Positions 14,669-57,740 of a DNA stretch of 64,000 bases are shown piece by piece. This stretch comes from an uncultured delta proteobacterium (lineage in GTDB: Bacteria > Desulfobacterota > Binatia > Binatales > Binataceae), in assembly GCA_963724765.1 (NCBI GenBank), contig CAVRVY010000003.1:1504001-1568000 (forward strand), read 5' to 3'. Both the position numbers and the translations under genes were made by a program. Positions within the stretch are counted from its first letter, which is position 1. Each line of letters opens with the position of its first letter. The notes below the pieces were generated by a model that had not been told where the DNA came from, searched no databases, and saw only the letters and a list, made by a program, of their open reading frames with translations.

Positions 14669-14825
14669 ATTGTCTCCCGGGTCTGAACAAGTTCTGACGC
14701 GCGCTGCGGCACGGGTCAATCGCTCGCGCGAGTCCCGCGCGTGTGGCAGGCGAGTCGCACCTTGACTGCCAGTGACTCGCAAGCCTAGCCTAAATTCGAC
14801 CGGCACTTGGAGAGGCGGCGAGATT

Positions 14826-16360: not shown

Positions 16361-16385
16361 CCTGCACAGCGAAGGGGCATATCGA

Positions 16386-23835: not shown

Positions 23836-24068
23836 GCGCCTGTCCACGATAATCGATATCGGATTATTGCCAGGCTTGTTGCCAAGCTTATGGCCAAGCT
23901 TATGGTCAGTTTTGTTGTCAGCCATGGTCGTGACCTTTCCCGTGACGCTTTCATTGACCGCAGTATCGCGGTCCAGCGCGCCGGCCCGGTGCTCTCGGGA
24001 ACTATACCTATCCCTTCTACTTGCCCGCCATGCTATCTTCAGATGGGTACGCTTTGAACAGAGTCGGC

Positions 24069-29774: not shown

Positions 29775-32237
29775 ATGGCGACCGAGCAAGCGCACCCAAC
29801 CGCCCGCGCGGCGTCGGGCAATGAGCATGACTCCGAGCCCGCGATGGGCAGCCGCATCCCCGCGCTCAACAGCAGAGCCCTGGTTGCCGGACGCGGAACT
29901 TATGTCGGTGACGTCACGCTTCCCGGCATGCTGCACATGGCGCTCGTGCGCAGCATGTACGCTCACGCGCTGGTCAAGTCGATCGATATAAGCGCCGCTC
30001 AGGCCCTGCCCGCAGTGGTCTGCGTGGTGACCGGCGATGAGATCCGCCGCAACACCAAGCCGATTCCTCAGCCCTACAACAAAGCGGGAATTGGAGTGCA
30101 TGCCTACGACTGGTATGCGCTCGCCCACGACAAGGTGCGCTACGTGGGCGAGGCCGTGGCCGTGGTGGTAGCGGAGGACAAGTACACCGCGCGCAAGGCT
30201 GCGGAAATGGTCGAAGTCGAGTACGAGGAGTTGCCCGTGGTCGCCGACGCCGAGCGCGGGATGGCTCCTGGAGCGCCACTGGTCGAACCTTCGTGGGGTA
30301 CCAACCTGGTGATGGAGCGGACCACCGAGACCGGCGATGTCGCGGGCGCCTTCGCCGCCGCCGACGGTGTGATCAAAGGATGCCTTTCGACGCAGCGCTA
30401 CTCGGCCTCGCCGATGGAGCCACGCGGATACGCCGCCAGCTACGACACCTTCCGCGACCAGCTCACGGTGTGGGCCTCGACGCAGTGTCCGCATCCGTTG
30501 CGCACTTACATCGCGCACATCATCGGCATGGATGAAAACCGCGTGCGCGTGATACAGCCCAACGTGGGCGGCGCTTTCGGCTCCAAAATTCCCACTTACC
30601 AGGAAGAGCCGCTCACCGCTTATCTAGCGCGCAAGCTGGGGCGGCCGGTGAAATGGATCGAGGAGCGCAGCGAAAATCTGCTGACCGGCGGCCACGCTCG
30701 GGAGCAGAAGGTGCATTTCGAGGCCGCGTACAAGCGCGACGGCCAGGTCACCGGGCTCAAGGCCAAGATCGTCGCCGACGTCGGCGCGCCCTCCGCGCTC
30801 GCGGGATGGGAGATGAGTCTCGTCACCACTTTTTGCCTCCCTACCGTCTACAAGGTTCCCAACTGCCGCGTCGAGCTGTATCCAGTTGCGACCAACAAGT
30901 GTCCATGGAATGCGTACCGCGGCTTCGGCAAAGAGACCGCGTCATTCCTGATGGACCGGATCATGGACGGGGTCGCGCAAGCGACCGGAATCGATCGGGC
31001 GGCGGTGCGAATGCGCAATTACATCCAGCCGCACGAGTTTCCCTATCAACAGGTGAGCGGGGTGATTCTCGATAGCGGCAATTATCCGGGCGCTCTGAGC
31101 AAGCTGCTCGACCTCGTCGGCTACGCGGACTTTCCCAAACTGCAGGCCGAGGCGCGCCGCGAGGGCCGCCGCATCGGCCTGGGACTTGGCCAGGAACTGG
31201 TCGCCGAGGGCTGCTCGCTTCCGACCTCGCTGCTCGTCGCGGGCTACGACGGCGCCACCGTGCGAGTCAACCCCTCGGGCCAGGTGACGGTGCTGACGGG
31301 AGTAACTTCCCCTGGCAGCGGCAATGAAACCGCGATCGCGCAGGTGGCCGCGGACACGCTGGGCGTGGACGTAAACACGGTGCGCGTGATCCAGGGCGAC
31401 ACTGAGACTTGTCCCTGGGGGCTGGGCAACTACAGCTCACGCGCGGTCATCATGGGCGGCTCCGCCACTTTCGTGGCGGCTGGCGATATCAGACAAAAAA
31501 TTCTCAAGGTTGCGGGCCATATGCTCGAAGTTCTGCCCGCCGACCTGGAATGCCGCGGCGGCAAAATTTTTCCCAAGGACACGCCCGCGCGTTACGTCGC
31601 CTTCAACGAGGTTGTCCACACCATCTACAACGACACCTTCGGGATTCACGCCAAGGAGATCGAACCGGGGCTCGAGGCGACGCGTTACTTCCGTCATCCC
31701 AACATCTACCAGGAGGGCGATCCCGAGGGCCGTTCTTCGGCTTATCCTTCGTGGCCCAATGCGGTGGTCGGCGCGATCGTCGAGGTCGATCCTGCCACCG
31801 GCGGCCTCAAACTCCTGCGCGTCTGTATGGTTCACGACAGCGGCGTCGTGGTTAACCCTATGCTGGCCGAGGGCAACGTCCACGGGGGCATCGCGCAAGG
31901 CATCGGCGGAGCGATTTACGAGCATCTGGTCTACGACGAGAACGGCCAGTTCAAGACCGGCACCTTCATGGATTACACGCTGCCCACTGCGGTCGAAGTT
32001 CCGCCGCTCGAACTCGCGCATCAGGAGACCCGCTCGCCGTTCACGCCGTTGGGGACCAAGGGAGTCGGGGAATCGGGTGTGGCAGGCATCCTGGGCGCTA
32101 TCTGCGGCGCGGTCGAAAACGCCTTGCCGGAACTCGATCTCCGGCTGCTCGAGATGCCACTTGCCCCCGAGCGTCTGTGGCGCGCGATCCAGGCTGCGCC
32201 GAAGCGCGCAGCCAACGGCGGAGGCACCGTTCGATGA
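29775..32237 (+). CDS. Xanthine dehydrogenase-family molybdopterin subunit (CoxL/CutL-like, not form I CODH)
   Basis: VGGAFGSK, AYRGFG, GGIAQGIG, KGVGESG. Confidence 0.9.
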   Translation: MATEQAHPTARAASGNEHDSEPAMGSRIPALNSRALVAGRGTYVGDVTLPGMLHMALVRSMYAHALVKSIDISAAQALPAVVCVVTGDEIRRNTKPIPQPYNKAGIGVHAYDWYALAHDKVRYVGEAVAVVVAEDKYTARKAAEMVEVEYEELPVVADAERGMAPGAPLVEPSWGTNLVMERTTETGDVAGAFAAADGVIKGCLSTQRYSASPMEPRGYAASYDTFRDQLTVWASTQCPHPLRTYIAHIIGMDENRVRVIQPNVGGAFGSKIPTYQEEPLTAYLARKLGRPVKWIEERSENLLTGGHAREQKVHFEAAYKRDGQVTGLKAKIVADVGAPSALAGWEMSLVTTFCLPTVYKVPNCRVELYPVATNKCPWNAYRGFGKETASFLMDRIMDGVAQATGIDRAAVRMRNYIQPHEFPYQQVSGVILDSGNYPGALSKLLDLVGYADFPKLQAEARREGRRIGLGLGQELVAEGCSLPTSLLVAGYDGATVRVNPSGQVTVLTGVTSPGSGNETAIAQVAADTLGVDVNTVRVIQGDTETCPWGLGNYSSRAVIMGGSATFVAAGDIRQKILKVAGHMLEVLPADLECRGGKIFPKDTPARYVAFNEVVHTIYNDTFGIHAKEIEPGLEATRYFRHPNIYQEGDPEGRSSAYPSWPNAVVGAIVEVDPATGGLKLLRVCMVHDSGVVVNPMLAEGNVHGGIAQGIGGAIYEHLVYDENGQFKTGTFMDYTLPTAVEVPPLELAHQETRSPFTPLGTKGVGESGVAGILGAICGAVENALPELDLRLLEMPLAPERLWRAIQAAPKRAANGGGTVR

Positions 32238-33649
32238 TTACCCAGGAATTCGAGTTTCGCGCGCCGGACAAACTCGACGAGGCGCTAACCCTTCTGGCCG
32301 AGGGCGGCGACGACGTCAAGCTGCTCTCGGGCGGGATGAGCCTGATGCCGATGATGGCGCTCGGGCTGGTGCGGCCGCGCATCGTGCTCAGCCTCAACCG
32401 CATCGACGGCCGCGGCTACGTGCGAGAAGATCGCAACGCGCTGCGAATTGGCGCGGGCACGCGTCACTACGAGATCCTGCGCGATCCGCTTATTGCGCGG
32501 CACTGCGCGCTGCTGGCCGAGGCGGCCGCCTTTATCGGCGACACGCAGGTGCGCAATCGCGGCACCATTGGCGGCAGCATCGCCCATGCCGACCCGGCGG
32601 CGGACTATAGTCCCGTGCTGGTCGCTACCGGGGCGCGCGTGATCGTGCGGAGCCTGCGCGGCGAGCGCGAAATAGCCGCGGACAAGTTTTTTACCAACCT
32701 GATGGAAACGGCGCTTAAGCCCGACGAGATCGTAACGGAAGTCCTGGTCCCCAAGCTGGGGGCGGCGCGCGGCGCGTATACTCGGTTCCATCGCGTCGAG
32801 GGGAACTTCGCGATCGTCAATGCCGCGGCAATTCTGAGCGATGGACACGCGCGAGTCGCGCTGGGCGGCGTCGGATCCACGCCCGTCGCACTCGACGTAA
32901 GCGCGGAACTCTCGCACGGGGTCAACGCTGAGGCGCTCGAAGCCATTGGCCGGCGCGTGCGCGCCGCCTGCACCGACGCGCCCGCGGACCTCAATGCCAG
33001 CGCCGACTATCGCCGCCAGATGGCCGCGGTTTTCGCCGAGCGCGCATTCGCGATCGCGGCCGGACGCACGCCGTCGCAGCAGACGCCCGAGGTCGGGAGA
33101 AAAACCGCCCCGCCCGCATCAACGCCGCGCAAAACCGGCATGGTTGGCGGACCGCTTCGCACCGCAATTGCAGTTTCCGTAAACGGACAGCCGCGGCGCC
33201 TCGAGGCTGATAACCGGATGGTGCTGGCCGATCTGCTGCGCGACGTGATTGGGCTTACCGGCACGCACATCGGCTGCGGCACCGGAAGCTGTGGCGCATG
33301 CACGGTGATGCTCGACGGGCGCACGGTCAAGAGTTGCTCGGTGCTGGCCGCGGACGTCGACGGATGCGCGGTCGAGACGATCGAATCGCTGGCCTCCGAC
33401 ATCCATCATCTGCATCCGCTCCAGGAATCCTTCGTGCGCAACCACGGCCAGCAGTGCGGCTACTGTACGCCCGGGATGGTGATGTCGGCGTTGCAGCTGC
33501 TGCGCGACAATCCCAATCCTGACGAGGCCGCCATCCGGCACGGGATTTCCGGCAACCTTTGCCGATGCACCGGCTATCAGTTCATCGTCAATGCGATTTC
33601 CGACGCGGCGCGCACTCTCGGCGCGGCCAAGTCGCAGCCGCCGACATAG
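32234..33649 (+). CDS. Fused FAD-binding (CoxM-like) and 2x[2Fe-2S] (CoxS-like) subunit
   Basis: LSGGMSL, VRNRGTIGGS; Pro-rich linker; GCGTGSCGAC...C and QCGYC...NLCRCTGY. Confidence 0.88.
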   Translation: MITQEFEFRAPDKLDEALTLLAEGGDDVKLLSGGMSLMPMMALGLVRPRIVLSLNRIDGRGYVREDRNALRIGAGTRHYEILRDPLIARHCALLAEAAAFIGDTQVRNRGTIGGSIAHADPAADYSPVLVATGARVIVRSLRGEREIAADKFFTNLMETALKPDEIVTEVLVPKLGAARGAYTRFHRVEGNFAIVNAAAILSDGHARVALGGVGSTPVALDVSAELSHGVNAEALEAIGRRVRAACTDAPADLNASADYRRQMAAVFAERAFAIAAGRTPSQQTPEVGRKTAPPASTPRKTGMVGGPLRTAIAVSVNGQPRRLEADNRMVLADLLRDVIGLTGTHIGCGTGSCGACTVMLDGRTVKSCSVLAADVDGCAVETIESLASDIHHLHPLQESFVRNHGQQCGYCTPGMVMSALQLLRDNPNPDEAAIRHGISGNLCRCTGYQFIVNAISDAARTLGAAKSQPPT

Positions 33650-41211: not shown

Positions 41212-41889
41212 ATGGCTGAGCAGACGACTTACGGCCCGGTCGCGACGCATCTGCGGTTCGAAAACGAGCATGTGCGTGTGTGGGAAATGGATCTTGCCAC
41301 CGGCCAGATCTGCGAACTGCATCGGCATCCGCTCGACTACATTTTGTACATACTCGAAGGCGGCAGGATCGCGGTGGAGTCGCCTGGGATGACCTCGAAT
41401 CGCTTTCCCGGCCAAACCACGTATGAGCTGGAAGTCGGCGCGCGGACAATTTCATACGTCCCGGCGGGCGGCGCCGAAAGCGCTCGCAACGTCAGCGGCG
41501 CGGGCCGTTTTCGTGAAGCCTTGTTCGAGATTCGCCGGCCGCTCCCGCCCGGCATCGCCAACCCGAGCTTCGCCCTGACCGAAGCCGCCGCCGGCAGACC
41601 GCCGGAGCGGGGAGAGGTGATGCTGCTCGAGAACAGCCGCATCCGCGCGCTGGAAGTGACCCTCGCCCCCGGCGACAAAGCCGGGCCGCGAGCGCATCCG
41701 CGCGACACTGCCGTATTCGTGATCCAAGGGGGACGGGTGCGATGGCGCGAGGCGCGCGAAGGCACGGAGCGTTCTCAGGAAACCGAGCTCGCTTCGAGTA
41801 CTGTGCTCTGGCAACCCGGCGGATGCGAGCGCGAGCTGACCAACGTGGGCGCGCGCCTGTACCGCGAGCTGCGCGTCGAGTTGCGCTGA
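41212..41889 (+). CDS. Tandem cupin-domain protein
   Basis: Two repeats: FENEHVRVWE...LHRHPLDY and LENSRIRALE...AHPRD. Confidence 0.75.
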   Translation: MAEQTTYGPVATHLRFENEHVRVWEMDLATGQICELHRHPLDYILYILEGGRIAVESPGMTSNRFPGQTTYELEVGARTISYVPAGGAESARNVSGAGRFREALFEIRRPLPPGIANPSFALTEAAAGRPPERGEVMLLENSRIRALEVTLAPGDKAGPRAHPRDTAVFVIQGGRVRWREAREGTERSQETELASSTVLWQPGGCERELTNVGARLYRELRVELR

Positions 41890-42106
41890 GCCGCGTACAT
41901 AAGTGTCTTTCGTTATTCTCTCCCCTGTGTTTTGGGGGAGCAGGTCAGAAAGTGCTCAACCAGTGATTCGCGAAGTTTCGTGTGCGTAAAGCAATCGGGG
42001 GGGGTCGAGAGGTCTAAGGCCTCGCCTTGCGGCGCTTAATTCTCTGTATTACAGCGTGACTACTGGTCTCCGTTTTTCGATCTCCACTTTTTTGGAGCGA
42101 CACGAC

Positions 42107-43357
42107 ATGCATGACAAAGACAACGGGCACAACACGCGCAGTACAAATGACGGCGGTCTGCTCTCCGGACTTCGGGTGATCGACTGCGGAACCTACGTTG
42201 CCGGCCCAGCGGCCGCCACGATCATGTCCGACTTCGGCGCCGAGGTGATCAAAATCGAGCGCCCCGGTGGCGGCGACCTGTGGCGGCTTTTTTCGAAGCT
42301 CCCCGGCACGGCCAAGTCCGAACTCGATTGGTGCTGGGTCCTCACCAGCCGCAACAAGAAAAGTGTCGCGCTGGATCTGGGACGGCCCGAAGGACGCGAA
42401 GCGCTGCTTCGCCTGGTGGGCACGGCGGATGTCTTCCTCACCAACTACCAGAGAACGCTGCTCGAGAAATTCCACCTGACTTGGGAGGACCTTGCGCCTG
42501 TCAACGACCGGCTAGTCTACGCGCACCTGACCGGCTACGGTGACGCGGGCGACGACGCAGATGACCCGGCGTTCGACGCGCTGGCGTACTGGGCACGCTC
42601 GGGTCTGATGACGAGCGTGACGGGGATCGACGGTTCGCCCAGCGGACCTCGGCCGGGGATGGGCGATCATCCAACCTCGATGTCGCTGTTCGGGGCGATC
42701 ATGCTGGGCCTTTACCGGCGCGAGCGCACCGGGCGCGGATCCAGGGTTAGTACATCTTTGCTGGCGAGCGGGGCGTGGGCCAACGCGTGCGACATTCAGG
42801 CCAAGCTCTTGAACGCGAAATTTCCCGAGCGCGGCGAGGGCAAGCATCCACCCAACCCGCTCACGGCTGTGTACCTCAGCCACGACGGCAAGATGTTTCT
42901 CCTCGTGCTAATCGATCCGGACAACGAGTTTCCGCGCCTGTGCCAAGCTTTCGGCCAGCCTGAACTCGGCACGGGCGAGTTGTTTGGAAGCAACGCCGAC
43001 CGCGATCAAAACGCGGCGGCGCTGTATGCAATCCTGCAGTCGCAGTTCGAATCGCGCGACCTGGCGGAGTGGAAAACGATCTTCAAATGCAACGACATCA
43101 AATGGGCGCCGCTGCCCAGGCTCGACGACGTCGTGCAGGATCCCCAGATGCGCGCGGCCGAGGCGTTCGTGAAGATGGATTATCCCGGGGCCGGTGTGCT
43201 GGAGACGGTGAACAGCCCGCTTTTCGTCTCCGGCGTGGAAAAACGGAAGCCCACGGCGGCGGCGGAGGTCGGCGCGCACACGCGCGAGGTACTGCAGGAA
43301 CTCGGGTATAGCGCGGAGGCAATCGAATCGATAGTGCGCGATGGCGCTCGGCGCTAG
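42107..43357 (+). CDS. CaiB/BaiF family CoA-transferase
   Basis: LRVIDCGTYVAGP, FGAEVIKIE, RNKKSVALDL, GMGDH. Confidence 0.9.
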   Translation: MHDKDNGHNTRSTNDGGLLSGLRVIDCGTYVAGPAAATIMSDFGAEVIKIERPGGGDLWRLFSKLPGTAKSELDWCWVLTSRNKKSVALDLGRPEGREALLRLVGTADVFLTNYQRTLLEKFHLTWEDLAPVNDRLVYAHLTGYGDAGDDADDPAFDALAYWARSGLMTSVTGIDGSPSGPRPGMGDHPTSMSLFGAIMLGLYRRERTGRGSRVSTSLLASGAWANACDIQAKLLNAKFPERGEGKHPPNPLTAVYLSHDGKMFLLVLIDPDNEFPRLCQAFGQPELGTGELFGSNADRDQNAAALYAILQSQFESRDLAEWKTIFKCNDIKWAPLPRLDDVVQDPQMRAAEAFVKMDYPGAGVLETVNSPLFVSGVEKRKPTAAAEVGAHTREVLQELGYSAEAIESIVRDGARR

Positions 43358-43507
43358 GGCAAAATCGTCGCGGTGACGCCATTACCGCCGCGGACGATAG
43401 TGGGATAAGCTGGAAGGTAGGTTTCTCGGCAACTGAGGAACGTAAAGGCTAAGCGAAAGCACAGCGATTCCTTCGCACAAGATCGCTAAAGGAGCGGAAA
43501 AGATAAG

Positions 43508-44860
43508 ATGCATTTCATGTGGTTTACGGAACGGGCGTACCATTATGATCCTGAGGTCGACCCGGCCAAGTATCATGCGCTGGAGAATCAGATCGTTGGA
43601 CTGCGCAGCTTCTTCAACACCCCCAACCGTTTTTTCGAGCGCGAGCACGGAGCGAAACTGCTCAACCAATACCTCGACGAGAAGATTTACACGGACTCCG
43701 AGCTGATGAGCTTCGACGGCGTGATGCTCAACGAGCATCATGGCACGCCGTTTTGCCTCGGTGCCGTGATGGATGTCGAAGCTTCCATCCTCGCCAAGAC
43801 CACCAAGCGGCTGAAGATGGTCCTGCTCGGCAATCCCGTCGCCACCGTCGCCAATCCGCTGCGCCTGGCGGAAGAACTGGCGATGATCGATCTCATCTCG
43901 GGCGGACGCCTGGTCTCCGGATGGGTGCGCGGCGCCGGTTCCGAGCAGTTCGCCAACAACACCAACCCGGCGCTCAACCGCGAACTGTTCGAGGAAGGCG
44001 TCGATTTCATCGTCAAGGCGTGGACCACGCCGGGCCCATTTCGCTACGAGGGCAAGCACTACAACTTCCGCAACGTGAACCCCTGGGTGCTGCCGCTGCA
44101 ACGGCCGCATCCGCCGTTCTGGATCCCGGGCCTGGTGAGTCCCGACACCGCCTTTTGGTGCGCCCGCAAGCGCTATCCGTACGTCGCCCTGGCCACGAGG
44201 CTGCAGCCGACGCTGGAGCTCTGGGACTTCTATGCGAAGGCGGCTGCGCAGGAGGGTTATCAGGCGGGGCCGGAGAATTTCGGCTACTTGCAGCCGGTGG
44301 TGGTGGCCGATACGCAGGAGCGAGCGGAGGAACTGGGCAAACGGATTCTTTTCGGCGGCGCCTTTGCGCACTTTGCTCGGCCGGAATGGATGTTCCCTCC
44401 GGGATACAATTCCAAGGCCGCAACCAAGCGTCTGGCCGAGTCGAATTTCGGCGCCAACGCCGCGGCCAAGTCGCTTTACGGCGAGGGCGGCAACAACGAG
44501 TCCGAAGAACAGATCGAAGCCGTCAAGAAACACATCTATGACGGCTATCCGGACGTCCTGAAGGACTACGTAATGATCGCCGGCACGCCTGACAACGTGA
44601 TTCCCAAGCTCAATAAAGTGCTCGACGTCCTGCGCCCGGGCATCTTTTCGTTCTGGCTCGACGGACCGGTCCCGGCCAAGGACCGGATGCGATGCCTGGA
44701 ATTGCTCAACCGCGACGTGATTCCGGCCATGCGCGACTACGGCAAGACGATCGGATTGGTCGATCCATTCCAGCGCGCTCCGGGTTCGCGCCCGTTGCGT
44801 CCGGGGGTTGCACCAGAGCCGGTGAGCAATGCCGACGCGCTCGCGTCGATGACGGCCTGA
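43508..44860 (+). CDS. Luciferase-like (LLM) flavin-dependent oxidoreductase
   Basis: FDGVMLNEHH, PLRLAEELAMIDLISGGRL, PLQRPHPP. Confidence 0.9.
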   Translation: MHFMWFTERAYHYDPEVDPAKYHALENQIVGLRSFFNTPNRFFEREHGAKLLNQYLDEKIYTDSELMSFDGVMLNEHHGTPFCLGAVMDVEASILAKTTKRLKMVLLGNPVATVANPLRLAEELAMIDLISGGRLVSGWVRGAGSEQFANNTNPALNRELFEEGVDFIVKAWTTPGPFRYEGKHYNFRNVNPWVLPLQRPHPPFWIPGLVSPDTAFWCARKRYPYVALATRLQPTLELWDFYAKAAAQEGYQAGPENFGYLQPVVVADTQERAEELGKRILFGGAFAHFARPEWMFPPGYNSKAATKRLAESNFGANAAAKSLYGEGGNNESEEQIEAVKKHIYDGYPDVLKDYVMIAGTPDNVIPKLNKVLDVLRPGIFSFWLDGPVPAKDRMRCLELLNRDVIPAMRDYGKTIGLVDPFQRAPGSRPLRPGVAPEPVSNADALASMTA

Positions 44861-45061: not shown

Positions 45062-45862
45062 ATGAGCTCTTCGGAAGAGGTGGCGGCCGGGCGTGCTCCT
45101 ACTGACTGGCTCGTCGGCTGGAAAACTCTATTTGTCGCATGCGGCCTGCTAATGGCCTGCAACGTTTTCCTTTGGGTCTGGGATTACAACTACGCGTTTA
45201 CGGCGGGACTTGATTCCTCGAGCCGCGCCTTCACGCTTCACTACCGCACGCTGTTCTGGGGTGAGCTGCTGAGCGTGGGGGCATTTGCCGGCCTGTGGTA
45301 CGGATGGCTGATGCGGACCGGCCGCAGTCTCGTGGGCGAGGCGGTGGCGCCCGCCGAAGAGGTGCGGCGCGTTGTGGTGCTGTGGGGAATTATCGGAGTT
45401 ACCAGCCTCTCGATCTACATCGAGGCGAGCTTCTGGCCCAACTGGGACGGCGCGTGGCATCAGACGATGGTGCGCGATACCGCGCTCACCCCGACCCACA
45501 TTCCGATGTTCTACTTCTTCTTCCCGATGTCGGTGGTGCTGGCCCTGGGAGCGTACCTGTACGGGCGCTTTCGGATTCCCGCGGTCTACGGCGGCGAGAA
45601 GGGATTCCCGTGGTCTTTCTTTTTGTTGATCGCGGCCGCGGTTCTCGAATTCGTGGAGGTCGCCTTCAACGAATGGGGTCACAGTCTCTGGATGTCAGAG
45701 GAATTCTTCTCGGTGCCCTTCCATTGGCCTTTTGTCATTTATGGATGGCTGGCGGGTGGGATGTTCGCGGTGTGGGGCGAAACCATCCTCTATCTCTTCC
45801 AGATAGAAAAGAGGGCGCGAGCGGTGGAAGAACTCCCGACCCATACGGCTGCCGCCGGCTAA
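45062..45862 (+). CDS. pmoC: Copper membrane monooxygenase subunit C (PmoC/AmoC family)
   Basis: AGLDS, EEVRR, DGAWHQTMVRDT..TPTH (D129/H133/H146), NEWGH...EEFFSVPFH (N203/H207/H221). Confidence 0.93.
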   Translation: MSSSEEVAAGRAPTDWLVGWKTLFVACGLLMACNVFLWVWDYNYAFTAGLDSSSRAFTLHYRTLFWGELLSVGAFAGLWYGWLMRTGRSLVGEAVAPAEEVRRVVVLWGIIGVTSLSIYIEASFWPNWDGAWHQTMVRDTALTPTHIPMFYFFFPMSVVLALGAYLYGRFRIPAVYGGEKGFPWSFFLLIAAAVLEFVEVAFNEWGHSLWMSEEFFSVPFHWPFVIYGWLAGGMFAVWGETILYLFQIEKRARAVEELPTHTAAAG

Positions 45863-45911: not shown

Positions 45912-46709
45912 ATGGCGACAGCACCATCGTTAGCCGCAGCCGCGGCGGCCGAGAAGCAACGCAGGCTCGCGCTGCGCGACCTGCTCAACGCGAAATATCA
46001 ATGGATCGATCGCACCTGGGACGCGGTCTTCTGGATCACGGCCATCTTCGTCGTTGCCGGGGCGGCGGACATCACGCGGCTGCTGTTCGCCGGCGATTGG
46101 GATTTCTGGACTGATTGGAAAGATCCGCAATGGTGGCCGGTGGTGACCGCCTTCGCCACCATCATCATTCCTTCCGCACTCCAATACATTCAGTGGGCCG
46201 CCTGGCGGTTCCCCACCGGCGCGACGTACACGTGCGTGTGCCTTTTCATGGCCTCGTGGATCGGGCGCTACTTCCAATGGCACGTGGCCGAAAGCTATCC
46301 AATGAACTTCATATGGCCGATATCGACGATTCCGGCGGCCATAATTCTTGACTGGCTATTGATGAGAACGAAAAGTTTCGTACTGACATCGCTTTTCGGC
46401 GGAGGGATTTGGGCCGTGATGGTGTGGAGCTTCAACTATATCCCGCTCGCGCCATTCCTTCAGCCGATGCAATTCATGCATCACATTCTCACGGTTGCCG
46501 ACGTCCAGGGCATCGTTTACATCCGCACCCAGACGCCCGAATACATGCGGCATATTGAACGCGGCGCGCTGCGCAGCTTTCTCGGCGAGACCCAGTACGT
46601 GTCGCTGCTGTTTGGCGGCACGATGGCGATGGTCGGTTATTGGATCGGCCAGTTCATCGGGCGATACCTCGCCGTGTGGCCGATTGGCAGATACATCAAG
46701 ACCGTCTGA
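45912..46709 (+). CDS. pmoA: Copper membrane monooxygenase subunit A (PmoA/AmoA family), divergent
   Basis: GDWDFWTDWKD, RFPTGAT, YPMNF, ADVQG, RTQTPEYMRHIERGALRSF. Confidence 0.93.
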   Translation: MATAPSLAAAAAAEKQRRLALRDLLNAKYQWIDRTWDAVFWITAIFVVAGAADITRLLFAGDWDFWTDWKDPQWWPVVTAFATIIIPSALQYIQWAAWRFPTGATYTCVCLFMASWIGRYFQWHVAESYPMNFIWPISTIPAAIILDWLLMRTKSFVLTSLFGGGIWAVMVWSFNYIPLAPFLQPMQFMHHILTVADVQGIVYIRTQTPEYMRHIERGALRSFLGETQYVSLLFGGTMAMVGYWIGQFIGRYLAVWPIGRYIKTV

Positions 46710-46728: not shown

Positions 46729-46965
46729 ATGCGAACCGTCTTTCGTTGCTTACGCGCCGTCGTGGTCGCGCTCCTGTGGACCAGCGTATTTGCCGCCAGC
46801 GCCTATGCGCATGGTGGAATCGCCGGGCCCGACGAGCTTGGCCCGCCGGTAATCACCTCGGCCGTGCTCGGCATCGGTGGCTACTGGTTGATGTTGCTGT
46901 GGCCGTCGCGCCGCCGTCCGGTGGTCAGCAAAAAAAACAAGCCGATGCGTAACGTGATGAAGTAG
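46729..46965 (+). CDS. 78-aa single-pass membrane protein between pmoA and pmoB
   Basis: ATG 19 nt after pmoA stop; signal peptide ending AYA, then HGG; TM VITSAVLGIGGYWLMLLW; basic tail. Confidence 0.72.
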   Translation: MRTVFRCLRAVVVALLWTSVFAASAYAHGGIAGPDELGPPVITSAVLGIGGYWLMLLWPSRRRPVVSKKNKPMRNVMK

Positions 46966-47007: not shown

Positions 47008-48258
47008 ATGCGAATGCGATTTCCGGCTGTTCTGTCAGCGGCTCTCTTCCTGCTCACAGCATCCTATGCGCCACGCGCTTTCGCGCACGGCGAAGCGGCG
47101 GACGAGCCGTTCCTCAAGGATCTCACCGTCGCCTTCTATGACGTGCACATCTCGCCTACCACGATCAAAGTAGGTGAGCCGGTCACGATCACTGGAGCGG
47201 TGAAAATTCTCGAGACCTGGCCATATACGCTCGATCCGCCGCAAACCGCGTACATCACGCCGGTCGTTCCGGGCCCGGTCTTCGCGCTCATCAACCGGGA
47301 GATTAATGGGACCGCGGCGCCGGGCTCGATCCTGGTCGACAAGGGCGGCACTTATCATTTCAAAATGGTGATCGAGGGGCGCGACCCCGGAAACTGGCAC
47401 GTGCATCCGGGAATCGCTATACAGGGCACCGGGACTCTCATCGGCCCGGGCGAGTGGGTCACGGTTGAGCGGGGGGCCGCGCCCTTCAAAATGGACGTGA
47501 CGCTGCTCACTGGCCAAACCGTCAATCTGGAGCATTACGGCGGCAGTTTCGTATGGTGGTGGTCATTCGCCGGGTTCCTGATCGGCATGATCTGGATGAT
47601 CTATTGGACCGTTCCCAAACGTACCGTTACCCGTCTCGCGGTGACCACACAAATACCGGTCAACGACGACGCTCCCGACATCGGACTCATCACCCCGCGC
47701 GACCACATGTGGATGGACGTGCTCGCCGGTGCGACGATCGCGATGCTGGTCGTCGGCTGGATCTACATGGCAGTGAAGTTTCCCGTGCGGTTGCCGCAGC
47801 AGACGGTGCGCTTTGCGCCCGAGGTCATCGATTCCACCACTCATTCGGTCCAGGTGATGAAAGCCGATTCCACCTACGACGATCGGACCGATACGCTGTT
47901 GATAAACCTCGCGGTCAGGAATACCGGGACCGTTGCGTTAAGCCTGAAGCAATACATCATGGCGATGGCCACGTTCGTCAATGGCGACAAGAAAGAACAG
48001 GAAAAGGCCGGACCGGCGCACTACGTCGGGCGCATGCAGGTCGAGCCCGACGCTCCGATCGAGCCCGGACAGACCGCGAAGGTGCAATTGAAGATAAGTA
48101 GTCCGCTGTTCGATGAAGAGCGGCTCATCCCGCTGCACGACCCGCAGGAGCGTATCGCGGGGCTGCTGCGCTTTACCGGTCCGCAGGGTCACGAGGACCT
48201 GGTTACCCTGCATACCGATCTCGTGCCAACGGAGTTCCGCCCGCAGTATTTGCCTTAG
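47008..48258 (+). CDS. pmoB: Copper membrane monooxygenase subunit B (PmoB/AmoB family)
   Basis: Signal peptide AFA then HGE; FYD; PGPV; GNWHVH; GPGEW; two TMs; PIEPGQT; IAGLL. Confidence 0.93.
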   Translation: MRMRFPAVLSAALFLLTASYAPRAFAHGEAADEPFLKDLTVAFYDVHISPTTIKVGEPVTITGAVKILETWPYTLDPPQTAYITPVVPGPVFALINREINGTAAPGSILVDKGGTYHFKMVIEGRDPGNWHVHPGIAIQGTGTLIGPGEWVTVERGAAPFKMDVTLLTGQTVNLEHYGGSFVWWWSFAGFLIGMIWMIYWTVPKRTVTRLAVTTQIPVNDDAPDIGLITPRDHMWMDVLAGATIAMLVVGWIYMAVKFPVRLPQQTVRFAPEVIDSTTHSVQVMKADSTYDDRTDTLLINLAVRNTGTVALSLKQYIMAMATFVNGDKKEQEKAGPAHYVGRMQVEPDAPIEPGQTAKVQLKISSPLFDEERLIPLHDPQERIAGLLRFTGPQGHEDLVTLHTDLVPTEFRPQYLP

Positions 48259-48276: not shown

Positions 48277-48822
48277 GTGAAGATCAAGCGACGCGAGTTC
48301 CTGCACAAGAGCGCGCTGGTGGTCGCCGGCGTATCGGCAGCGGCCGCTGGTGTTACGGTCACCGGCTTTGCCGCCGAATGGACTTCGAAATTAAAGACCC
48401 TGAATGCACACGAGGCTGAAACGCTGCTCAAGATGGCGCGGCAGATCTTCCCGCACGACCGCCTCGGCGATAGCTACTATATAAAAGTAGTTGATGACCT
48501 CGATGCGGAGGCGGCAAGCAAGCCCGCCACCGCCAGAATGATAAGCGCAGGAGTAGCTAATCTGGATCATTTGGCGAAAGGCGAATTTGCCGCCCAACCC
48601 GCCAGCGATCAAATCGCCGCGCTCAAGAAAATTCAGCATACGCCGTTTTTCGAGAAGGTCCGCAGCACCGAGCTGGTTTCGCTGTACAATAACGAGGACG
48701 TTTGGAAGGTCTTCGGCTACCAGGGCGCCTCCTACCGTTTCGGCGGTTACCTGCATCACGGCTTCAACGACCTGAATTGGCTGCCGGAACCACCCGAAGC
48801 GGCAAGCCCGAAACCGGGCTGA
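48277..48822 (+). CDS. Tat-signal small subunit (gluconate 2-dehydrogenase subunit 3-like)
   Basis: KRREFL twin-arginine motif; IFPHD; LYNNEDVWKVFGYQG; GGYLHHGFNDLNWL. Confidence 0.8.
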   Translation: MKIKRREFLHKSALVVAGVSAAAAGVTVTGFAAEWTSKLKTLNAHEAETLLKMARQIFPHDRLGDSYYIKVVDDLDAEAASKPATARMISAGVANLDHLAKGEFAAQPASDQIAALKKIQHTPFFEKVRSTELVSLYNNEDVWKVFGYQGASYRFGGYLHHGFNDLNWLPEPPEAASPKPG

Positions 48823-48837
48823 ACGGAGAGTTGCATC

Positions 48838-50406
48838 GTGGCTCGATTCGATTCGAATGACGATTCCGTCGTGGTAATCATCGGTTCGGGAGCGGGCGGA
48901 GGCACGCTGGCGAACGAGCTCTGTCACAAGGGCTTCAAGGTGGTGATGCTCGAGGCGGGGCAGCGTCAGTCGCCGCAGACCTTTCACAACGACGAGTGGT
49001 TCGCATTCAAGCAACTAGCCTGGCTCGATAAGCGCACCACCTCGGGGACCTGGCGGGTAGCGAAGGACTTCCCCAACCTGCCGGCCTGGACCTGCAAGAC
49101 GGTTGGTGGAACGACCGTGCACTGGGCGGGCGCGTCGTTGCGCTTTCAGGAGCACGAATTCAAGACCAAGACCACCTATTCAAGTGTCAGCGGTGCGAAC
49201 CTTCTCGACTGGCCGATAAGCCTCGCGGAATTGGCGCCTTACTACGCCAAGGCCGAGGATAAGATGGGCGTGACGCGGACTAATGATATTCCGGGACTCC
49301 CGGGGAATAACAATTTCAAGGTAATGTATAATGGTGCCACGCGTGTAGGGTATAAGACTGTGCACACCGGGCGCATGGCGATTAATAGCCGGCCCCGCGA
49401 CCGCCGTTCGTCCTGCTGGCAACTCGGATTTTGTTTCCAGGGCTGCAAGTCGGGAGCGAAGTGGTCAACTCTCTACACCGAAATTCCGAAGGCCGAGTCC
49501 ACTGGTAAGCTCGATTTGCGGCCCGGGTCCTACGCGCTCCAGATTCAGCATGACGCCAATGGCAAAGCGACCGGCGTGCTGTACGCCGATAAGGACGGCA
49601 AACATGTCGTGCAGAAGGCGCGCATCGTGTGCGTGGCCTGCAATTCGATCGAAAGCGCGCGGCTCCTGCTCAACTCGGCCTCGTCCACGTTCCCGCACGG
49701 GCTCGCCAATTCATCCGGCCAGGTCGGCAGAAACTACATGCGGCATACGACCGGCTCCGTCTACGCCATTTTCGACAAGCCGGTCCATATGTATCGTGGT
49801 ACCGTGATGGCCGGAATCATCACCGACGAAGCCGAGTTGAATACCAAGCGCGGGTTTGCCGGCGGTTTCGAGATGGAGACCATCTCGCTCGGACTGCCGT
49901 TCGCGGCCGCGTTCCTGGATCCGGGAGCCTGGGGACGCGACTATTCGAGCATGCTTGAGCAGTATCCCAACATGGCTGGGTTGTGGATCGTGGGCGAGGA
50001 CATGCCGCAGGCGACCAACGCCGTGACGCTCCATCCGACGGTAAAGGACCAGTGGGGTCTCCCGATTCCGAACGTGCACTACGACGATCATCCCAACGAC
50101 GTCGCCATGCGCAACTACGGATACAAGCAGGGCGCTGCGGTGTACAATGCCGTTGGGGCGATCAAGACCATCGCGGTCCCGCCGTATCCTTCGACGCATA
50201 ACCTGGGCACGTGCCGTATGAGCGAGCGCCCCGGCGACGGCGTCTGCAATAAGTGGGGCCAGACTCACGACGTGAAAAATCTGTTCATTTCCGACGGCAG
50301 CCAGTTCACGTCCAGTGGGGGCGAGAATCCCACGCTCACGATCGTCAGCCTGGCCATCAGGCAAGCCGATCGCATCGCCGCCGAGAGTGCGAAGCGGAAC
50401 CTCTAG
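48838..50406 (+). CDS. GMC family flavin oxidoreductase
   Basis: IIGSGAGGG, VGGTTVHW, CWQLGFCFQGC, GRNYMRH, HNLGTCRM, NPTLTI; no signal peptide. Confidence 0.93.
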   Translation: MARFDSNDDSVVVIIGSGAGGGTLANELCHKGFKVVMLEAGQRQSPQTFHNDEWFAFKQLAWLDKRTTSGTWRVAKDFPNLPAWTCKTVGGTTVHWAGASLRFQEHEFKTKTTYSSVSGANLLDWPISLAELAPYYAKAEDKMGVTRTNDIPGLPGNNNFKVMYNGATRVGYKTVHTGRMAINSRPRDRRSSCWQLGFCFQGCKSGAKWSTLYTEIPKAESTGKLDLRPGSYALQIQHDANGKATGVLYADKDGKHVVQKARIVCVACNSIESARLLLNSASSTFPHGLANSSGQVGRNYMRHTTGSVYAIFDKPVHMYRGTVMAGIITDEAELNTKRGFAGGFEMETISLGLPFAAAFLDPGAWGRDYSSMLEQYPNMAGLWIVGEDMPQATNAVTLHPTVKDQWGLPIPNVHYDDHPNDVAMRNYGYKQGAAVYNAVGAIKTIAVPPYPSTHNLGTCRMSERPGDGVCNKWGQTHDVKNLFISDGSQFTSSGGENPTLTIVSLAIRQADRIAAESAKRNL

Positions 50407-50418
50407 CGGAAGCTCCAG

Positions 50419-51036
50419 ATGACGCGGCGCGTTTTCGGATTTCGCAGCGGCGCGTCGGCAGTTTGGATCGCCTCAGCGGCGATACTCATGCTGGCGCTTC
50501 CGTTCGCGGCGCGGGCTGAACTCGGCAAAGCCGCGGCGCGGGCGGTGGCGAGTCCTGCCGACGGCCTGCCAAAAGTAAGTCTTACAGACCAGAATGGCAG
50601 AGCGATCTCGCTTTCGTCATTGAAGGGCAAGCCGGCACTGGTCGCTTTTATCCACACCTCGTGCGAAGGGCCCTGCGAGCTGATCACTGCCGAGATGAAG
50701 TCGGTCGCGCGGAGCCTGGGGCCCAGCTTCAGGTCCGAAGTCACGATGGTCTCGATCACTACGGACCCCAAGGAGGACGGATCGCGCGAGCTGCTTGCCT
50801 ATGCCAAGGCGCAAGGAGTGGACGCCGACGGATGGGTGTTCCTGACCGGCGCGCCCGCAAAGATTCGCCGGCTCCTGGCCCTTTACGGCGTCTCGGCTGA
50901 AGACGACGACTCGGCCCACGTCCTGGAGCTGTTTCTGCTCAGCGCCGACGGCGTTGGATTACGCCGTTACAATGGTCTCGCGACACGTCCGGAAACGATC
51001 GCCTCGGATATCAGGAAAACCGTCTCGCTTCATTAG
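50419..51036 (+). CDS. SCO1/SenC copper chaperone
   Basis: N-terminal anchor, LTDQNG, TSCEGPC (CxxxC), ITTDP, WVFLTG, distal His (SAH). Confidence 0.88.
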   Translation: MTRRVFGFRSGASAVWIASAAILMLALPFAARAELGKAAARAVASPADGLPKVSLTDQNGRAISLSSLKGKPALVAFIHTSCEGPCELITAEMKSVARSLGPSFRSEVTMVSITTDPKEDGSRELLAYAKAQGVDADGWVFLTGAPAKIRRLLALYGVSAEDDDSAHVLELFLLSADGVGLRRYNGLATRPETIASDIRKTVSLH

Positions 51037-54239: not shown

Positions 54240-54427
54240 GAGCCATCGGATCGGAATCGGAAGAGCGATTACAAGGACAGGATATCAAACCGGTCGAGCC
54301 TTTGTAGAGCAATCTATGCGGTCGAGCGGCCGGATTCGCGTCGCAGTGGAAAGATATTCAATTGACGAAATCAGAGAATTGGCGCATCGTTGAGTGTCTA
54401 AGCTGCAACAAGATCCGGAGCGTCAAA

Positions 54428-55966
54428 ATGGCTGAGGCAAGCAAACTTTCGCGCCGCCTGAGCACCCAGGACGCTTCATTTCTATACAACGAGACGCCCA
54501 ACGGCCCACTGCACATCGGTCTCCTCCAAACCTTCGAAGGCGAGATCGAGTTCGATCGGCTGATAGAGTATTTCGAGCGCCGCATTCATCTTTTGCCGGG
54601 TTACCGGCAGCGCCTGATTTTCGCGCCGTTTAACCTCGCTCACGCGACCCTGGAGGATGATCCGGCGTTCGAGCTGCGCAATCACCTAAAGCGCCACACG
54701 CTCCACAGCGGCGCCGACGACGCTGAAATGGCCGAAATAGCGATGTGCGTCAACGAGCCTCCGTTGGAGCGGAGCCGCCCGCTATGGGAATTGCATCTGT
54801 TCCAGGGCCTCGAGGGCGGCCGTTCAGCGCTGCTGTGGAAAATCCATCACTGCATTGTCGACGGGGTCTCAGCGTTGCAATTGATTGCGACCGCGATGGA
54901 TCTGAGACCTGACGCTCCGGCGCCGGCGCCTGAGCGTGAGCCGTGGGCGCCCGCGAGCCTGCCCGACAGCTCCAAGTCCCTGCTGGACGCGGCGGTAGCG
55001 CTGGTCGAGAACCGGCTCGATGAACTGCATGAGGCCGCAAGACTGCTGAGCTCGCCGGCCGATCTGGCCGAGCGGAGCGCTGCGATGGCCGGCGCGGCCG
55101 CGCAGATGTTCCAGATGATGTCGCGGCCGATCGTTGCGGCGCCATGGAACATGGGGCTCGTCAGCCGGGCCTGCTCGCTAGCGTGGCTTAGGGTCTCTTT
55201 CGGCGACCTTCGCGCAATCCGCAGCGCGCTTGGTGGCACGGTCAATGACGTGGTGCTGACTATCCTGAGCGAGGGCGCCGCGCGCTACCTGAAACACCAC
55301 GAGGTCGCCACAGATGGGCTTGCGCTGCGCGTCGGATGTCCGGTCAACGTGCGGCGCGAGGGCGAGAACGGAGCGATGGGCAACCGGGTATCAATGATGT
55401 TTCCCGAATTGGCGGCGACGCCGATGGACCCAATCGAGCGCTACCGCTCAGTAGTGCGGGAGACCGAGCGAATCAAGGCTGCGCGCGAGCCGCAGGGGAT
55501 GGACTTGCTAACGGCGACCGCTGACTCGGTCTCGCCCGGCTTGCAAGACTTCAACTCGAAGATGACAAATAGCGCGATCGAGGCCGCGACACGGCTCTCC
55601 GAGTTCACAGGCGGTCTGGCCCGAATGATCGCGGGGCCGCCGATGGGGATCAACTTCATCGCTACGAACGTGCCGGGGGCTCAGGTTCCGATGTACCTGG
55701 CGGGGCATCGGATGCTCGATTTCGTCGGCCTCGTTCCACTGGCGGGCACGCTCGGCTATGGCGTGGCGATAGTTAGCTACAATCAGAACCTGTTCTTTGG
55801 ACTGATGGCGGAGCCGCAGATGATGCCCGACGTGGAATTCATGAAGTCGTGCATCGCAGACGCCTTTGAGGAACTCAAGGCCGCAGTGCAAAGAGTAATG
55901 TCCGCGCAAGAGCAATTGATAAAGGCGGCCGGACAAGTACTGAAACGCGATTCAGCGCTGGCGTGA
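54428..55966 (+). CDS. Wax ester synthase/diacylglycerol acyltransferase
   Basis: LSTQDASFLYNE, PLWE, HHCIVDG (HHxxxDG), TVNDV, TNVPG. Confidence 0.92.
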   Translation: MAEASKLSRRLSTQDASFLYNETPNGPLHIGLLQTFEGEIEFDRLIEYFERRIHLLPGYRQRLIFAPFNLAHATLEDDPAFELRNHLKRHTLHSGADDAEMAEIAMCVNEPPLERSRPLWELHLFQGLEGGRSALLWKIHHCIVDGVSALQLIATAMDLRPDAPAPAPEREPWAPASLPDSSKSLLDAAVALVENRLDELHEAARLLSSPADLAERSAAMAGAAAQMFQMMSRPIVAAPWNMGLVSRACSLAWLRVSFGDLRAIRSALGGTVNDVVLTILSEGAARYLKHHEVATDGLALRVGCPVNVRREGENGAMGNRVSMMFPELAATPMDPIERYRSVVRETERIKAAREPQGMDLLTATADSVSPGLQDFNSKMTNSAIEAATRLSEFTGGLARMIAGPPMGINFIATNVPGAQVPMYLAGHRMLDFVGLVPLAGTLGYGVAIVSYNQNLFFGLMAEPQMMPDVEFMKSCIADAFEELKAAVQRVMSAQEQLIKAAGQVLKRDSALA

Positions 55967-56126
55967 TCGCGTCACTGATTGGGCATAGACGCGAGGAGCA
56001 CAAACCGCTCGGTTGCATAGGGGCCAGGCCTTCAAACCGATTTCCTGAAGAGCACCGAAAGCTCCGGCTCAACAAGTTTCCGGCGTCGCCGGCCCCGCAG
56101 GGCCGCAAGGTGTCAGGAGAAAGAGC

Positions 56127-56624
56127 ATGGGACAGCCAGAAAACGATGGCGATATAGCTGCACTCTATCAAGCCCTGGGGGCCGAGGTGCAGGAGGTCCT
56201 GCGCAAGGCGTCAGCGGCGGGAGCCGATCGCGAAGAAGTGCGCGCCGCGGCCTGGAAGGCCTACGAAGCCTGGGTGCGCGCTGCGCATGCTTCAATCGAG
56301 AAGGTGGTGGCGACGCCGGCGGTTGGCGACGCGGCCGCGGGAGTGCTCAATCTCTTCTTGCGCGCGGCGCAAGTCGGCAACTCCGTGGTGGGCTCGCTGT
56401 TCGCGCCGCTGTGGCCGCTGGTCGGACTGACCCCGCTGACCGAGACGCAGGCGTTGTTCGATAGAATCGAGAGCCTGCGGCGCGAGGTGCGACAATTCAC
56501 CGCGCCGGGCATGCCGAAACCGATCGCGCCCGTCGCTGCGCCTCGCGCGGCGGCGCCCCGGAGCCGGCGTGGACAAAATGGAAATGTTTCCCGTGACAAG
56601 AAGCCGGCTGCCATTAGCCAGTAG
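56127..56624 (+). CDS. Short PhaE-like subunit
   Basis: YEAW and GLTPLTETQALFDRIESLRREVR resemble the PhaE C-terminus; directly upstream of phaC. Confidence 0.55.
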   Translation: MGQPENDGDIAALYQALGAEVQEVLRKASAAGADREEVRAAAWKAYEAWVRAAHASIEKVVATPAVGDAAAGVLNLFLRAAQVGNSVVGSLFAPLWPLVGLTPLTETQALFDRIESLRREVRQFTAPGMPKPIAPVAAPRAAAPRSRRGQNGNVSRDKKPAAISQ

Positions 56625-56669
56625 AACGCGACCAGCCGGCGCTGTCGCGCCGTGCAAAAGGCAAGCGCT

Positions 56670-57740
56670 ATGTCACTGATGACCGAACTTCCGATGTACT
56701 GGTTGGATGGCGCGGTGCGAGCGCTCGACGGCAGGCGCCGGGGATTGAGCGACCATTATCCGCTGAGCGAAGATCCTCCGGGAATAACTCCGTACGAGGT
56801 TGTTTACGAAGGCGGGAAAGTCAGGCTGCGGCACTACGCGGCGCAAGGGAATTCGCATCGCACGCCGCTGGTCTTCGTCTATGCGCTGATCAAGAGACCC
56901 TTCATACTCGATCTGTTTCCGGGACGCAGCGTGATGGCGAACCTGACCCGACAAGGCTTCGACGTCTACATGGTTGAATGGATTCCGCCGGCGCGGGCTG
57001 ACAGTTGGCGCGGATTCGACGCCTACGTGAACCATGACCTTGGCGATACGATGCGCGCGGTTCAAAACCTGACCGGCGTGGCGAAAGTTAATTTGCTGGG
57101 CTACTGCTTCGGCGGCCTGCTGACGCTGTTGTACGCGGCGTTGCATCCCGACGACATCAAGAACCTGATCACGCTCACGACGCCGTTCGACACCGCGGTC
57201 GAAGGCAATCCGCTGTTCAATCTCGAGAGCAGATTCAGCGGCCAGACAGTTGACCTGGTCACGTCGGTGTACGGGAATTGCCCGGCGTGGTTTATAAGAG
57301 GACTATTCACTGCGACCGCCGTCGTACATCACGCGATCGACAAGTACGTCGCGCTCTATCGGAACAAGGAGAAGGAGGACTACGCGGAGTTCTTCGACTT
57401 GTTCGAGCAATGGATGGCTGGCGACGTGCCGCTGGCCGGACGGATATTCCGCGAGGTGACGCGGGAAATCTTTCAGAAGAACCTGCTTAAGAAGGGTGAG
57501 TTCAACGTGGGCGGCGAGCACGTGGACCTGGGAAAGATCGTCTGCCCGCTGCTCAACGCGGTCGGCGAGTACGATGACGTGGTGTTTCCGGCCTCCAGTC
57601 TGCCGTTGATAGATTTCGTCGGCAGCGAGGACAAACGCAATCTGACGTTTCCCGCGGGACACATCGGGATGGTGGTGAGCGGCGCGGCGCACAAACAGTT
57701 CTGGCCACAAGTAGGCGCCTGGCTCGCCGAACGTGACTGA
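56670..57740 (+). CDS. phaC: Class III-type PHA synthase
   Basis: TPYEVVY, YALIKRPFILDL, GYCFGG (catalytic Cys), DDVV, GHIG; about 356 aa. Confidence 0.85.
   Translation: MSLMTELPMYWLDGAVRALDGRRRGLSDHYPLSEDPPGITPYEVVYEGGKVRLRHYAAQGNSHRTPLVFVYALIKRPFILDLFPGRSVMANLTRQGFDVYMVEWIPPARADSWRGFDAYVNHDLGDTMRAVQNLTGVAKVNLLGYCFGGLLTLLYAALHPDDIKNLITLTTPFDTAVEGNPLFNLESRFSGQTVDLVTSVYGNCPAWFIRGLFTATAVVHHAIDKYVALYRNKEKEDYAEFFDLFEQWMAGDVPLAGRIFREVTREIFQKNLLKKGEFNVGGEHVDLGKIVCPLLNAVGEYDDVVFPASSLPLIDFVGSEDKRNLTFPAGHIGMVVSGAAHKQFWPQVGAWLAERD

Follow-up and report, generated by a model that had tools for sequence, protein, structure and literature searches.

In a 64,000-nucleotide stretch of contig CAVRVY010000003.1 from an uncultured bacterium of the Binataceae (hereafter the window), the genes of a copper membrane monooxygenase (CuMMO) are followed by two genes that encode a small subunit with a twin-arginine translocation (Tat) signal and a flavoprotein of the GMC family. 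Comparisons with homologues indicate that this pair most likely belongs to the GmcAB family of acetol (hydroxyacetone) dehydrogenases. The gene anatomy, the family, the residues and the conserved linkage to the CuMMO genes were established here. In the whole route that we propose, to which we give a probability of roughly 0.7, the CuMMO would hydroxylate acetone that is either taken up or formed from 2-propanol or propane, the Tat-exported dimer would oxidise acetol to methylglyoxal, an iron-sulfur (Fe-S) cluster would relay the electrons to a monohaem cytochrome c and from there to the respiratory chain, and a glyoxalase would lead on to lactate.

Family, structure and residues of the gene pair

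The small subunit begins with the twin-arginine signal K-R-R-E-F-L-H-K followed by a hydrophobic stretch, and the GMC protein opens at the FAD-binding GxGxxG region with no signal peptide visible in its sequence. The cysteines of the GMC protein, C193-x5-C199-x3-C203, align with the cysteine triad of fructose dehydrogenase (FDH), and the motif was present in all 120 GMC homologues among the matches listed. A preliminary description of this stretch had reported the Tat small subunit and the signal-less GMC protein with CxxxxxCxxxC, and both were confirmed on the two open reading frames (Table 1). Its suggestion that the enzyme is exported via the small subunit gains support by analogy, as Tat piggy-back transport has been proposed for the homologue GmcB (bioRxiv 10.64898/2026.06.11.731722, hereafter the AceDH preprint). 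The pair of small-subunit and GMC genes recurs in dozens of genomes; together with the cysteine motif kept in all listed homologues, this shows that the pair is not a chance arrangement.

The GMC protein was 71% identical, gap-free over 516 aa, to a GMC protein of Methylocella tundrae, and the small subunits of the two organisms were 40% identical over 172 aa. The M. tundrae cluster contains, in this order, monooxygenase subunits, regulator genes, cytochrome c, glyoxalase, small subunit and GMC, and its glyoxalase and GMC genes take the positions of Msil_1643 and Msil_1641 in M. silvestris (locus tags counted from the alpha subunit). By this synteny the M. tundrae protein may, indirectly, be equated with Msil_1641, the deletion of which, according to the accessible part of PMC7364539, made acetol accumulate and abolished growth on acetone and 2-propanol. 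GMC homologues on proteobacterial plasmids were 66–74% identical (best 40 of 729 records). At 15 plasmid loci, which were picked by hand from these 40 records and represent mostly one per genus, a small-subunit gene and, within 7 kb, a glyoxalase-type gene of the vicinal oxygen chelate (VOC) superfamily were always found (15/15 each), together with a di-iron monooxygenase at 6, a small cytochrome c at 7 and a D-lactate dehydrogenase at 2 of the 15 loci. In the available sections of PMC8630023, GmcAB of Methylacidiphilum is described as clustered with the genes of PMO3, a CuMMO that oxidises acetone. The acetol dehydrogenase (AceDH) of strain SolV was purified and crystallised as an alpha-beta dimer with a Km of 2.3 µM for acetol; it showed no activity on methanol, 1- and 2-propanol or 1,2-propanediol, and it reduced cytochrome cGJ, the gene of which is located elsewhere in the genome (AceDH preprint).

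The closest solved structures of the GMC protein were the large subunits of FDH and glucose dehydrogenase (GDH), at 25–27% identity; a structural model of the GMC protein (pLDDT 92.9) reached a TM-score of 0.85 to these subunits. FDH and GDH carry a membrane-bound multihaem subunit, and haem 1c is named in the PDB title. The preliminary description had placed the pair with the glucose- and fructose-type dehydrogenases, as one without its cytochrome subunit. This placement was not upheld: the family is most likely that of acetol dehydrogenase, an alpha-beta dimer with a separately encoded cytochrome, and in 28 of 41 relatives a monohaem cytochrome gene lies beside the pair. The identity of only 25–27% to FDH and GDH speaks against a sugar dehydrogenase short of a subunit.

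For the small subunit, Pfam gave a single match, to a Tat-signal model at a weak E of 0.007; sequence and profile searches against the PDB returned Tat-signal matches only. The Gluconate_2-dh3 model was matched at E ≤ 1 by 26 of 34 aligned small-subunit relatives, with a best value of 5.5e-7. The top Foldseek rows were FDH small subunits, with weak scores (E 1.0–2.0). VIA-align reached at most Z 4.5; the GDH gamma subunit scored Z 4.0 over 85 aligned positions (rmsd 4.8), which does not exceed background.

Residues of the SolV enzyme were mapped from the text of the AceDH preprint by motif and identical spacing, not by sequence alignment. His91, Cys187/193/197 and Phe194 of SolV correspond to H95, C193/C199/C203 and F200 in the window, and His297, Met318, His458, Glu500 and Asn501 to H303, M324, H454, E496 and N497, with equal internal distances in each set. 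When the window protein was aligned with 36 Binatota and 15 plasmid GMC proteins (5 of 41 were omitted as frameshifted or cut), H95, the three cysteines, H303, M324, H454 and N497 were invariant in 36/36 Binatota and 15/15 plasmid sequences. Where SolV has the copper ligands Asp188 and Cys190, the window has Trp194 and Leu196, and Asp or Cys was found there in none of the 36 Binatota sequences. Met144 of the beta subunit, a further copper ligand of the verrucomicrobial [Cu-4Fe-4S] AceDH, has no counterpart in the window's small subunit, which contains no Met beyond residue 88 and none in its C-terminal half. Because these copper ligands are missing, the GMC protein is predicted to hold a three-Cys cluster of the 3Fe-4S type like that of FDH and GDH. 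The Methylocella enzymes are likewise without the copper motif (AceDH preprint). The Cys-bound Fe-S relay suggested in the preliminary description is supported.

The CuMMO operon and the conservation of the link

To survey the link, genomes were scanned once with an XmoB alignment, which yielded 83 relatives, 80 of which were kept; a GMC gene was scored as present at an identity of at least 60%. GMC genes were located at 41 of the 80 xmoB loci, and this co-occurrence supports the functional attachment to the CuMMO that had been proposed from the window. The pair was found in three gene orders: xmoCAxB-small-GMC-SCO, in the window and 10 further loci; xmoCAxB-Zn-ADH-cytochrome-small-GMC-SCO, which includes a zinc alcohol dehydrogenase (Zn-ADH); and cytochrome-small-GMC-pmoD-SCO-xmoCAxB, in which the PmoD match had an E-value of 4e-10. 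The SCO gene accompanied 38 of the 41 GMC loci. In the window and its 10 closest loci, the small-subunit gene starts about 20–50 bp past xmoB and the cytochrome gene is missing.

A monohaem cytochrome gene (single CxxCH, ~130–190 aa) was found at 28 of the 41 GMC loci, at 27 of them directly before the small-subunit gene. The 13 GMC loci without it comprise 10 of the window's clade, two truncated at the end of a contig, and the locus L041. A quick GMC tree grouped the window with 9 cytochrome-less loci (SH-aLRT 98), inside a larger clade made up of 36 CuMMO-linked sequences (SH-aLRT 96), the others of which mostly carry the cytochrome. Given this nesting, the cytochrome gene was most plausibly lost from the operon secondarily, along with the Zn-ADH gene. 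Independent recruitment of the GMC gene at L041 was suggested by the tree and is not claimed, because a single origin was not rejected (approximately unbiased test, p 0.082). A BLAST comparison of the Binataceae cytochrome with the plasmid loci found no match. In the window itself, all six frames of the 64 kb were scanned; the 8 C-x2..4-CH strings that turned up all lie in short or shadow frames, and no credible cytochrome c gene was found. A hidden Markov model of the relatives' neighbouring cytochrome likewise had no match in the window and recovered the control locus L016 at 1.7e-52. The earlier remark that no CxxCH cytochrome gene lies near the pair therefore holds across the entire window.

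The Zn-ADH gene was present at 18 of the 41 GMC loci and in no operon of the window's clade. Its product was 63% identical to one encoded in a monooxygenase-GMC cluster of Bradyrhizobium, and of five viewed contexts of close plasmid homologues, three were di-iron monooxygenase clusters and two were not. Glyoxalase I was located directly after xmoB at 3 of the 80 loci (TIGR00068 above cut-off), and another VOC gene was found in 4 GMC loci.

Among the 61 well-flanked loci (at least 6 kb on each side), 33 carried the GMC gene, 26 a pyrroloquinoline quinone (PQQ) alcohol dehydrogenase, and none both; over all 80 loci, PQQ dehydrogenase occurred in 26 and again never together with GMC. The PQQ loci fall mostly in a single branch of the XmoB tree, a quick tree whose outgroup branch was too long for rooting and from which 5 of the 80 loci were omitted, and the mutual exclusion therefore counts as about one event rather than 26. 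With this reservation, the pattern supports the view that the GMC enzyme stands in for a PQQ dehydrogenase, as the preliminary description had proposed. A GldA-type glycerol/propanediol dehydrogenase was encoded at 25 of the 26 PQQ loci, which fits the reduction of acetol to 1,2-propanediol, an alternative route published in PMC7176365 (in its accessible part). At the PQQ-type loci (L051–L088, e.g. L053 and L060), two pmoD-like genes, a multicopper oxidase, the PQQ alcohol dehydrogenase and the GldA-type dehydrogenase take the place of the GMC pair.

In the window, the gaps along xmoC-xmoA-x-xmoB-small-GMC-SCO were 49, 19, 42, 18, 15 and 12 bp (Table 1), and a scan for promoters and terminators found nothing that exceeded shuffled sequences. 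Named homologues of both the GMC protein and XmoB came from Candidatus Binataceae, which makes a host of this family very likely. H27, H131 and H133 of XmoB were invariant in the XmoB alignment. The SCO1/SenC protein probably serves the CuMMO. The x gene had no NCBIfam match, and its top Atlas cluster was hypothetical, with Binatota as the commonest taxon. In its product, a signal-like start precedes a conserved N-terminal His-Gly-Gly, which is reminiscent of an N-terminal copper ligand.

Table 1. Genes of the CuMMO operon in the window, including the GMC pair.
Feature	Positions	Strand	Remarks
xmoC, CuMMO subunit C	45062–45862	+	Pfam AmoC E 3e-44; RDTA, i.e. Ala at the HmoC151-equivalent site
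xmoA, CuMMO subunit A	45912–46709	+	Pfam AMO E 3.5e-59
x gene of the CAxB operon, conserved	46729–46965	+	78 aa; tblastn matches in the same place at most related loci
xmoB, CuMMO subunit B, Binataceae type	47008–48258	+	Pfam Monooxygenase_B E 8e-83; homologue names
Small (beta, GmcB-like) subunit, putative acetol dehydrogenase	48277–48822	+	181 aa; GTG start; Tat signal
GMC flavoprotein (alpha, GmcA-like) subunit, putative acetol dehydrogenase	48838–50406	+	522 aa; Pfam GMC_oxred_N and GMC_oxred_C
SCO1/SenC copper chaperone	50419–51036	+	CxxxC; Pfam SCO1-SenC E 5e-19

Genes for a cupin, a class III CoA-transferase and a luciferase-like monooxygenase (41212–44860) precede xmoC, in an order that is kept in the window's clade; the luciferase-like monooxygenase is 87–98% identical within that clade. 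Elsewhere in the window, we observed nitrile hydratase beta, alpha and accessory genes (14772–16736), a molybdopterin hydroxylase (29775–33649), a wax-ester synthase with a PhaC-like gene (54362–57740), and a PRK08199-like gene for a thiamine pyrophosphate (TPP)-dependent enzyme (22146–24102, minus strand), which is split over several frames, by pseudogene formation or assembly errors. The nitrile hydratase and TPP-enzyme genes were considered as suppliers of acetone and dropped, the latter because the gene is frameshifted, lies ~21 kb away and matches best the PRK08199 and acetolactate-synthase models.

Further observations concern the related loci. PmoD and SCO are apparently fused in one open reading frame at several of them (L034 6579–7799; L040, L046 and L078 upstream of xmoC) and separate in L038. 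In five loci (e.g. L016 16117–18934, L017 and L020), the operon is followed by genes that presumably encode subunits of an NAD(P) transhydrogenase. In L048 (9383–11221), an xmoB that has neither xmoC nor xmoA in its vicinity, and whose start is joined to an apparent insertion sequence, is probably a dead copy. Five loci (L018, L036, L057, L086 and L033) are labelled Deltaproteobacteria, Enterobacteriaceae or Proteobacteria and group with Binatota in the trees; the labels may be outdated or the sequences mis-binned.

Substrate, proposed pathway and alternative explanations

The XmoC site equivalent to HmoC151 was Ala in 74 of 74 sequences, within the same RDTA as in HmoC of M. chubuense NBB4, to which the overall identity was only 35%. 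This site is Ala in HMO, Asp in methane enzymes and Glu in PMO3, as the accessible part of PMC8630023 states. Methanotroph PmoC has RDTD where the window has RDTA, and the Asp marker of the particulate methane monooxygenase is thus absent. The Ala argues against methane without deciding between an alkane and a ketone. The residues before the conserved Asp of XmoC are PNWD in 74/74 Binatota sequences, TEQD in methanotroph PmoC and AEED in NBB4 HmoC; this stretch may shape the substrate pocket. Because genes for the putative acetol dehydrogenase are placed so steadily beside the CuMMO in uncultured Binatota, the monooxygenase is suggested to attack acetone or propane rather than methane.

In the proposed pathway, the co-transcribed CuMMO would hydroxylate acetone, and perhaps propane too, to give acetol; in relatives with Zn-ADH, the route may begin at propane or 2-propanol. 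The twin-arginine signal of the beta subunit would carry the folded alpha-beta dimer to the periplasm, where FAD, probably covalently bound to His95, would oxidise acetol to methylglyoxal with His454 and His303 as base and relay. The near-surface three-Cys (3Fe-4S-type) cluster would hand the electrons on to a soluble monohaem cytochrome c and thence to respiration; for the window's clade, this cytochrome may be encoded outside the operon or replaced by a shared one. Glyoxalase would then turn methylglyoxal into lactate. The activity, the dimer and the cytochrome acceptor are adopted here from the homologues. The preliminary description had the enzyme oxidise the alcohol product of the CuMMO. 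The CuMMO-coupled role is retained, whereas for the substrate the hydroxyketone acetol is likelier than a primary alcohol, given the inactivity of the SolV enzyme on methanol and the other alcohols named above.

Several observations weigh against this pathway. Homologues of glyoxalase, D-lactate dehydrogenase, Zn-ADH and PmoD were searched for in the window, and none was found in the 64 kb. The FAD-binding His, the cysteine triad, H303, H454 and N497 occur in FDH as well, and the matched residues, being partly common to FDH, are therefore not diagnostic for acetol. The position of SolV Thr451 is Val447 in the window and Val in 29 of 36 Binatota sequences (Thr in 7/36, and in 13/15 plasmid sequences), which may shift the specificity. 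Orthology to the characterised SolV and M. silvestris enzymes is supported by synteny and residue spacing, not by direct alignment. XmoC has the alkane-type Ala instead of the Glu that marks PMO3. Finally, the scan was centred on xmoB and its counts cover only GMC genes beside a CuMMO, and 2 of the 61 well-flanked loci contained neither the GMC nor the PQQ module.

An alternative that we consider unlikely keeps the family and the location and shifts the specificity: the enzyme would oxidise a secondary alcohol, a diol or a C4 hydroxyketone formed after CuMMO attack on a gaseous alkane, and would do the job of the PQQ dehydrogenase of the sister loci. It is consistent with the HMO-like Ala of XmoC, with Val in place of Thr451, with the failure of GMC and PQQ dehydrogenase to co-occur at any of the 80 loci, and with the operons of the window's clade, which are without Zn-ADH; in the available sections of PMC8630023, Awala et al. 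suggested that GmcAB acts on 2-propanol.

We regard it as very improbable that in the cytochrome-less clade the surface Fe-S cluster passes electrons straight to the CuMMO as its physiological reductant. The small subunit gene lies close behind xmoB in this clade, and acetol gave reducing equivalents to whole cells of acetone-grown strain IT6, by an electron path not thereby shown (PMC8630023, accessible part). However, the tight spacing follows from the deletion of the Zn-ADH and cytochrome genes in a nested clade, and an adjacent cytochrome gene is also missing at 8 of the 15 plasmid loci and in the SolV cluster, yet SolV AceDH reduces cytochrome cGJ encoded elsewhere. A further point against direct return is that this enzyme also serves cytoplasmic di-iron monooxygenases, which are beyond its reach. 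The return of electrons to the monooxygenase, also raised in the preliminary description, found no supporting evidence in this analysis.

It is hardly credible that the pair is an FDH/GDH-type dehydrogenase for sugars or sugar acids and a mere neighbour of the CuMMO operon, since the GMC fold, cysteine triad, small subunit, best solved relatives and top Foldseek rows (E about 1) that would speak for it are set against the much higher identity to the glyoxalase-linked family, a xmoCAB linkage that persists through three gene orders, and neighbouring cytochromes that, where present, have a single CxxCH, with no multihaem subunit gene in the window.

Relation to known systems and significance

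Methylacidiphilum pmoCAB3 is a published case of this enzyme type paired with a CuMMO: AceDH of M. fumariolicum SolV is GmcA/GmcB (Mfumv2_1610/1609) in the pmoCAB3 acetone-monooxygenase cluster (AceDH preprint; PMC8630023; PMC12235487; in the portions available). The window and SolV have in common a Tat small subunit, a signal-less GMC protein, an adjoining CuMMO, a cluster without a cytochrome gene, the motif end GFCFQGC and the spacing of the named active-site residues. They differ in that SolV binds copper in [Cu-4Fe-4S] through Asp188, Cys190 and beta-Met144, for which the window has Trp194, Leu196 and no such Met; the window further has Val for Thr451, Ala for Glu in XmoC and a following SCO gene, and its operon is without the glyoxalase, lactate dehydrogenase, PEP synthase and pmoD of the SolV cluster.

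The three-Cys motif without copper ligands is shared with the Msil_1641/1642 cassette of Methylocella (PMC7364539, in part), where a monohaem cytochrome is often adjacent. Upstream of the Methylocella and other proteobacterial cassettes is a soluble di-iron propane/acetone monooxygenase or none, whereas the window has a copper membrane monooxygenase. FDH of Gluconobacter and GDH of Burkholderia cepacia resemble the pair in the fold of the alpha subunit, the cysteine triad and the family of the small hitch-hiker subunit, and differ in their low identity and in oxidising sugars.

The CAxB gene order and the Binataceae host agree with the Binatota operons of Murphy et al. 2021 (PMC8262859), who left the CuMMO substrate open; GMC and acetol go unmentioned in the accessible main text and 9 supplements of that paper. 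Passages of studies from 2024 and 2026 also call the substrate of Binatota CuMMOs unclear, without mention of GMC. Reasoning from this GMC protein to the substrate is already established, because a 2025 paper, in its available part, used its absence to argue against acetone oxidation in another lineage. Our literature search found no paper that joins Binatota CuMMOs with GMC or acetol, within a reach that stopped short of figures (including the 101-sequence tree of the AceDH preprint, possibly with Binatota), most subscription papers and bioRxiv supplements.

An operon partner of known and narrow substrate leads to a concrete prediction for Binatota CuMMOs, namely the conversion of acetone to acetol, possibly from propane or 2-propanol. 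If true, this would change the counting of pmoA-like reads of Binatales in methane-sink surveys, in which this widespread CuMMO family is often mis-counted. The window enzyme, predicted to be copper-free, would also allow the role of copper in the SolV cluster to be examined by comparison. More tentatively, and with some doubt, all Binatota CAxB CuMMOs, often listed as putative methane/butane monooxygenases, might be acetone (short-ketone) monooxygenases with two interchangeable modules for the disposal of acetol, either acetol dehydrogenase with glyoxalase or GldA with PQQ dehydrogenase, their ketone activity having been reached without the Glu marker of PMO3. If so, the uncultured Binatota would be an unrecognised sink for acetone, not for methane.

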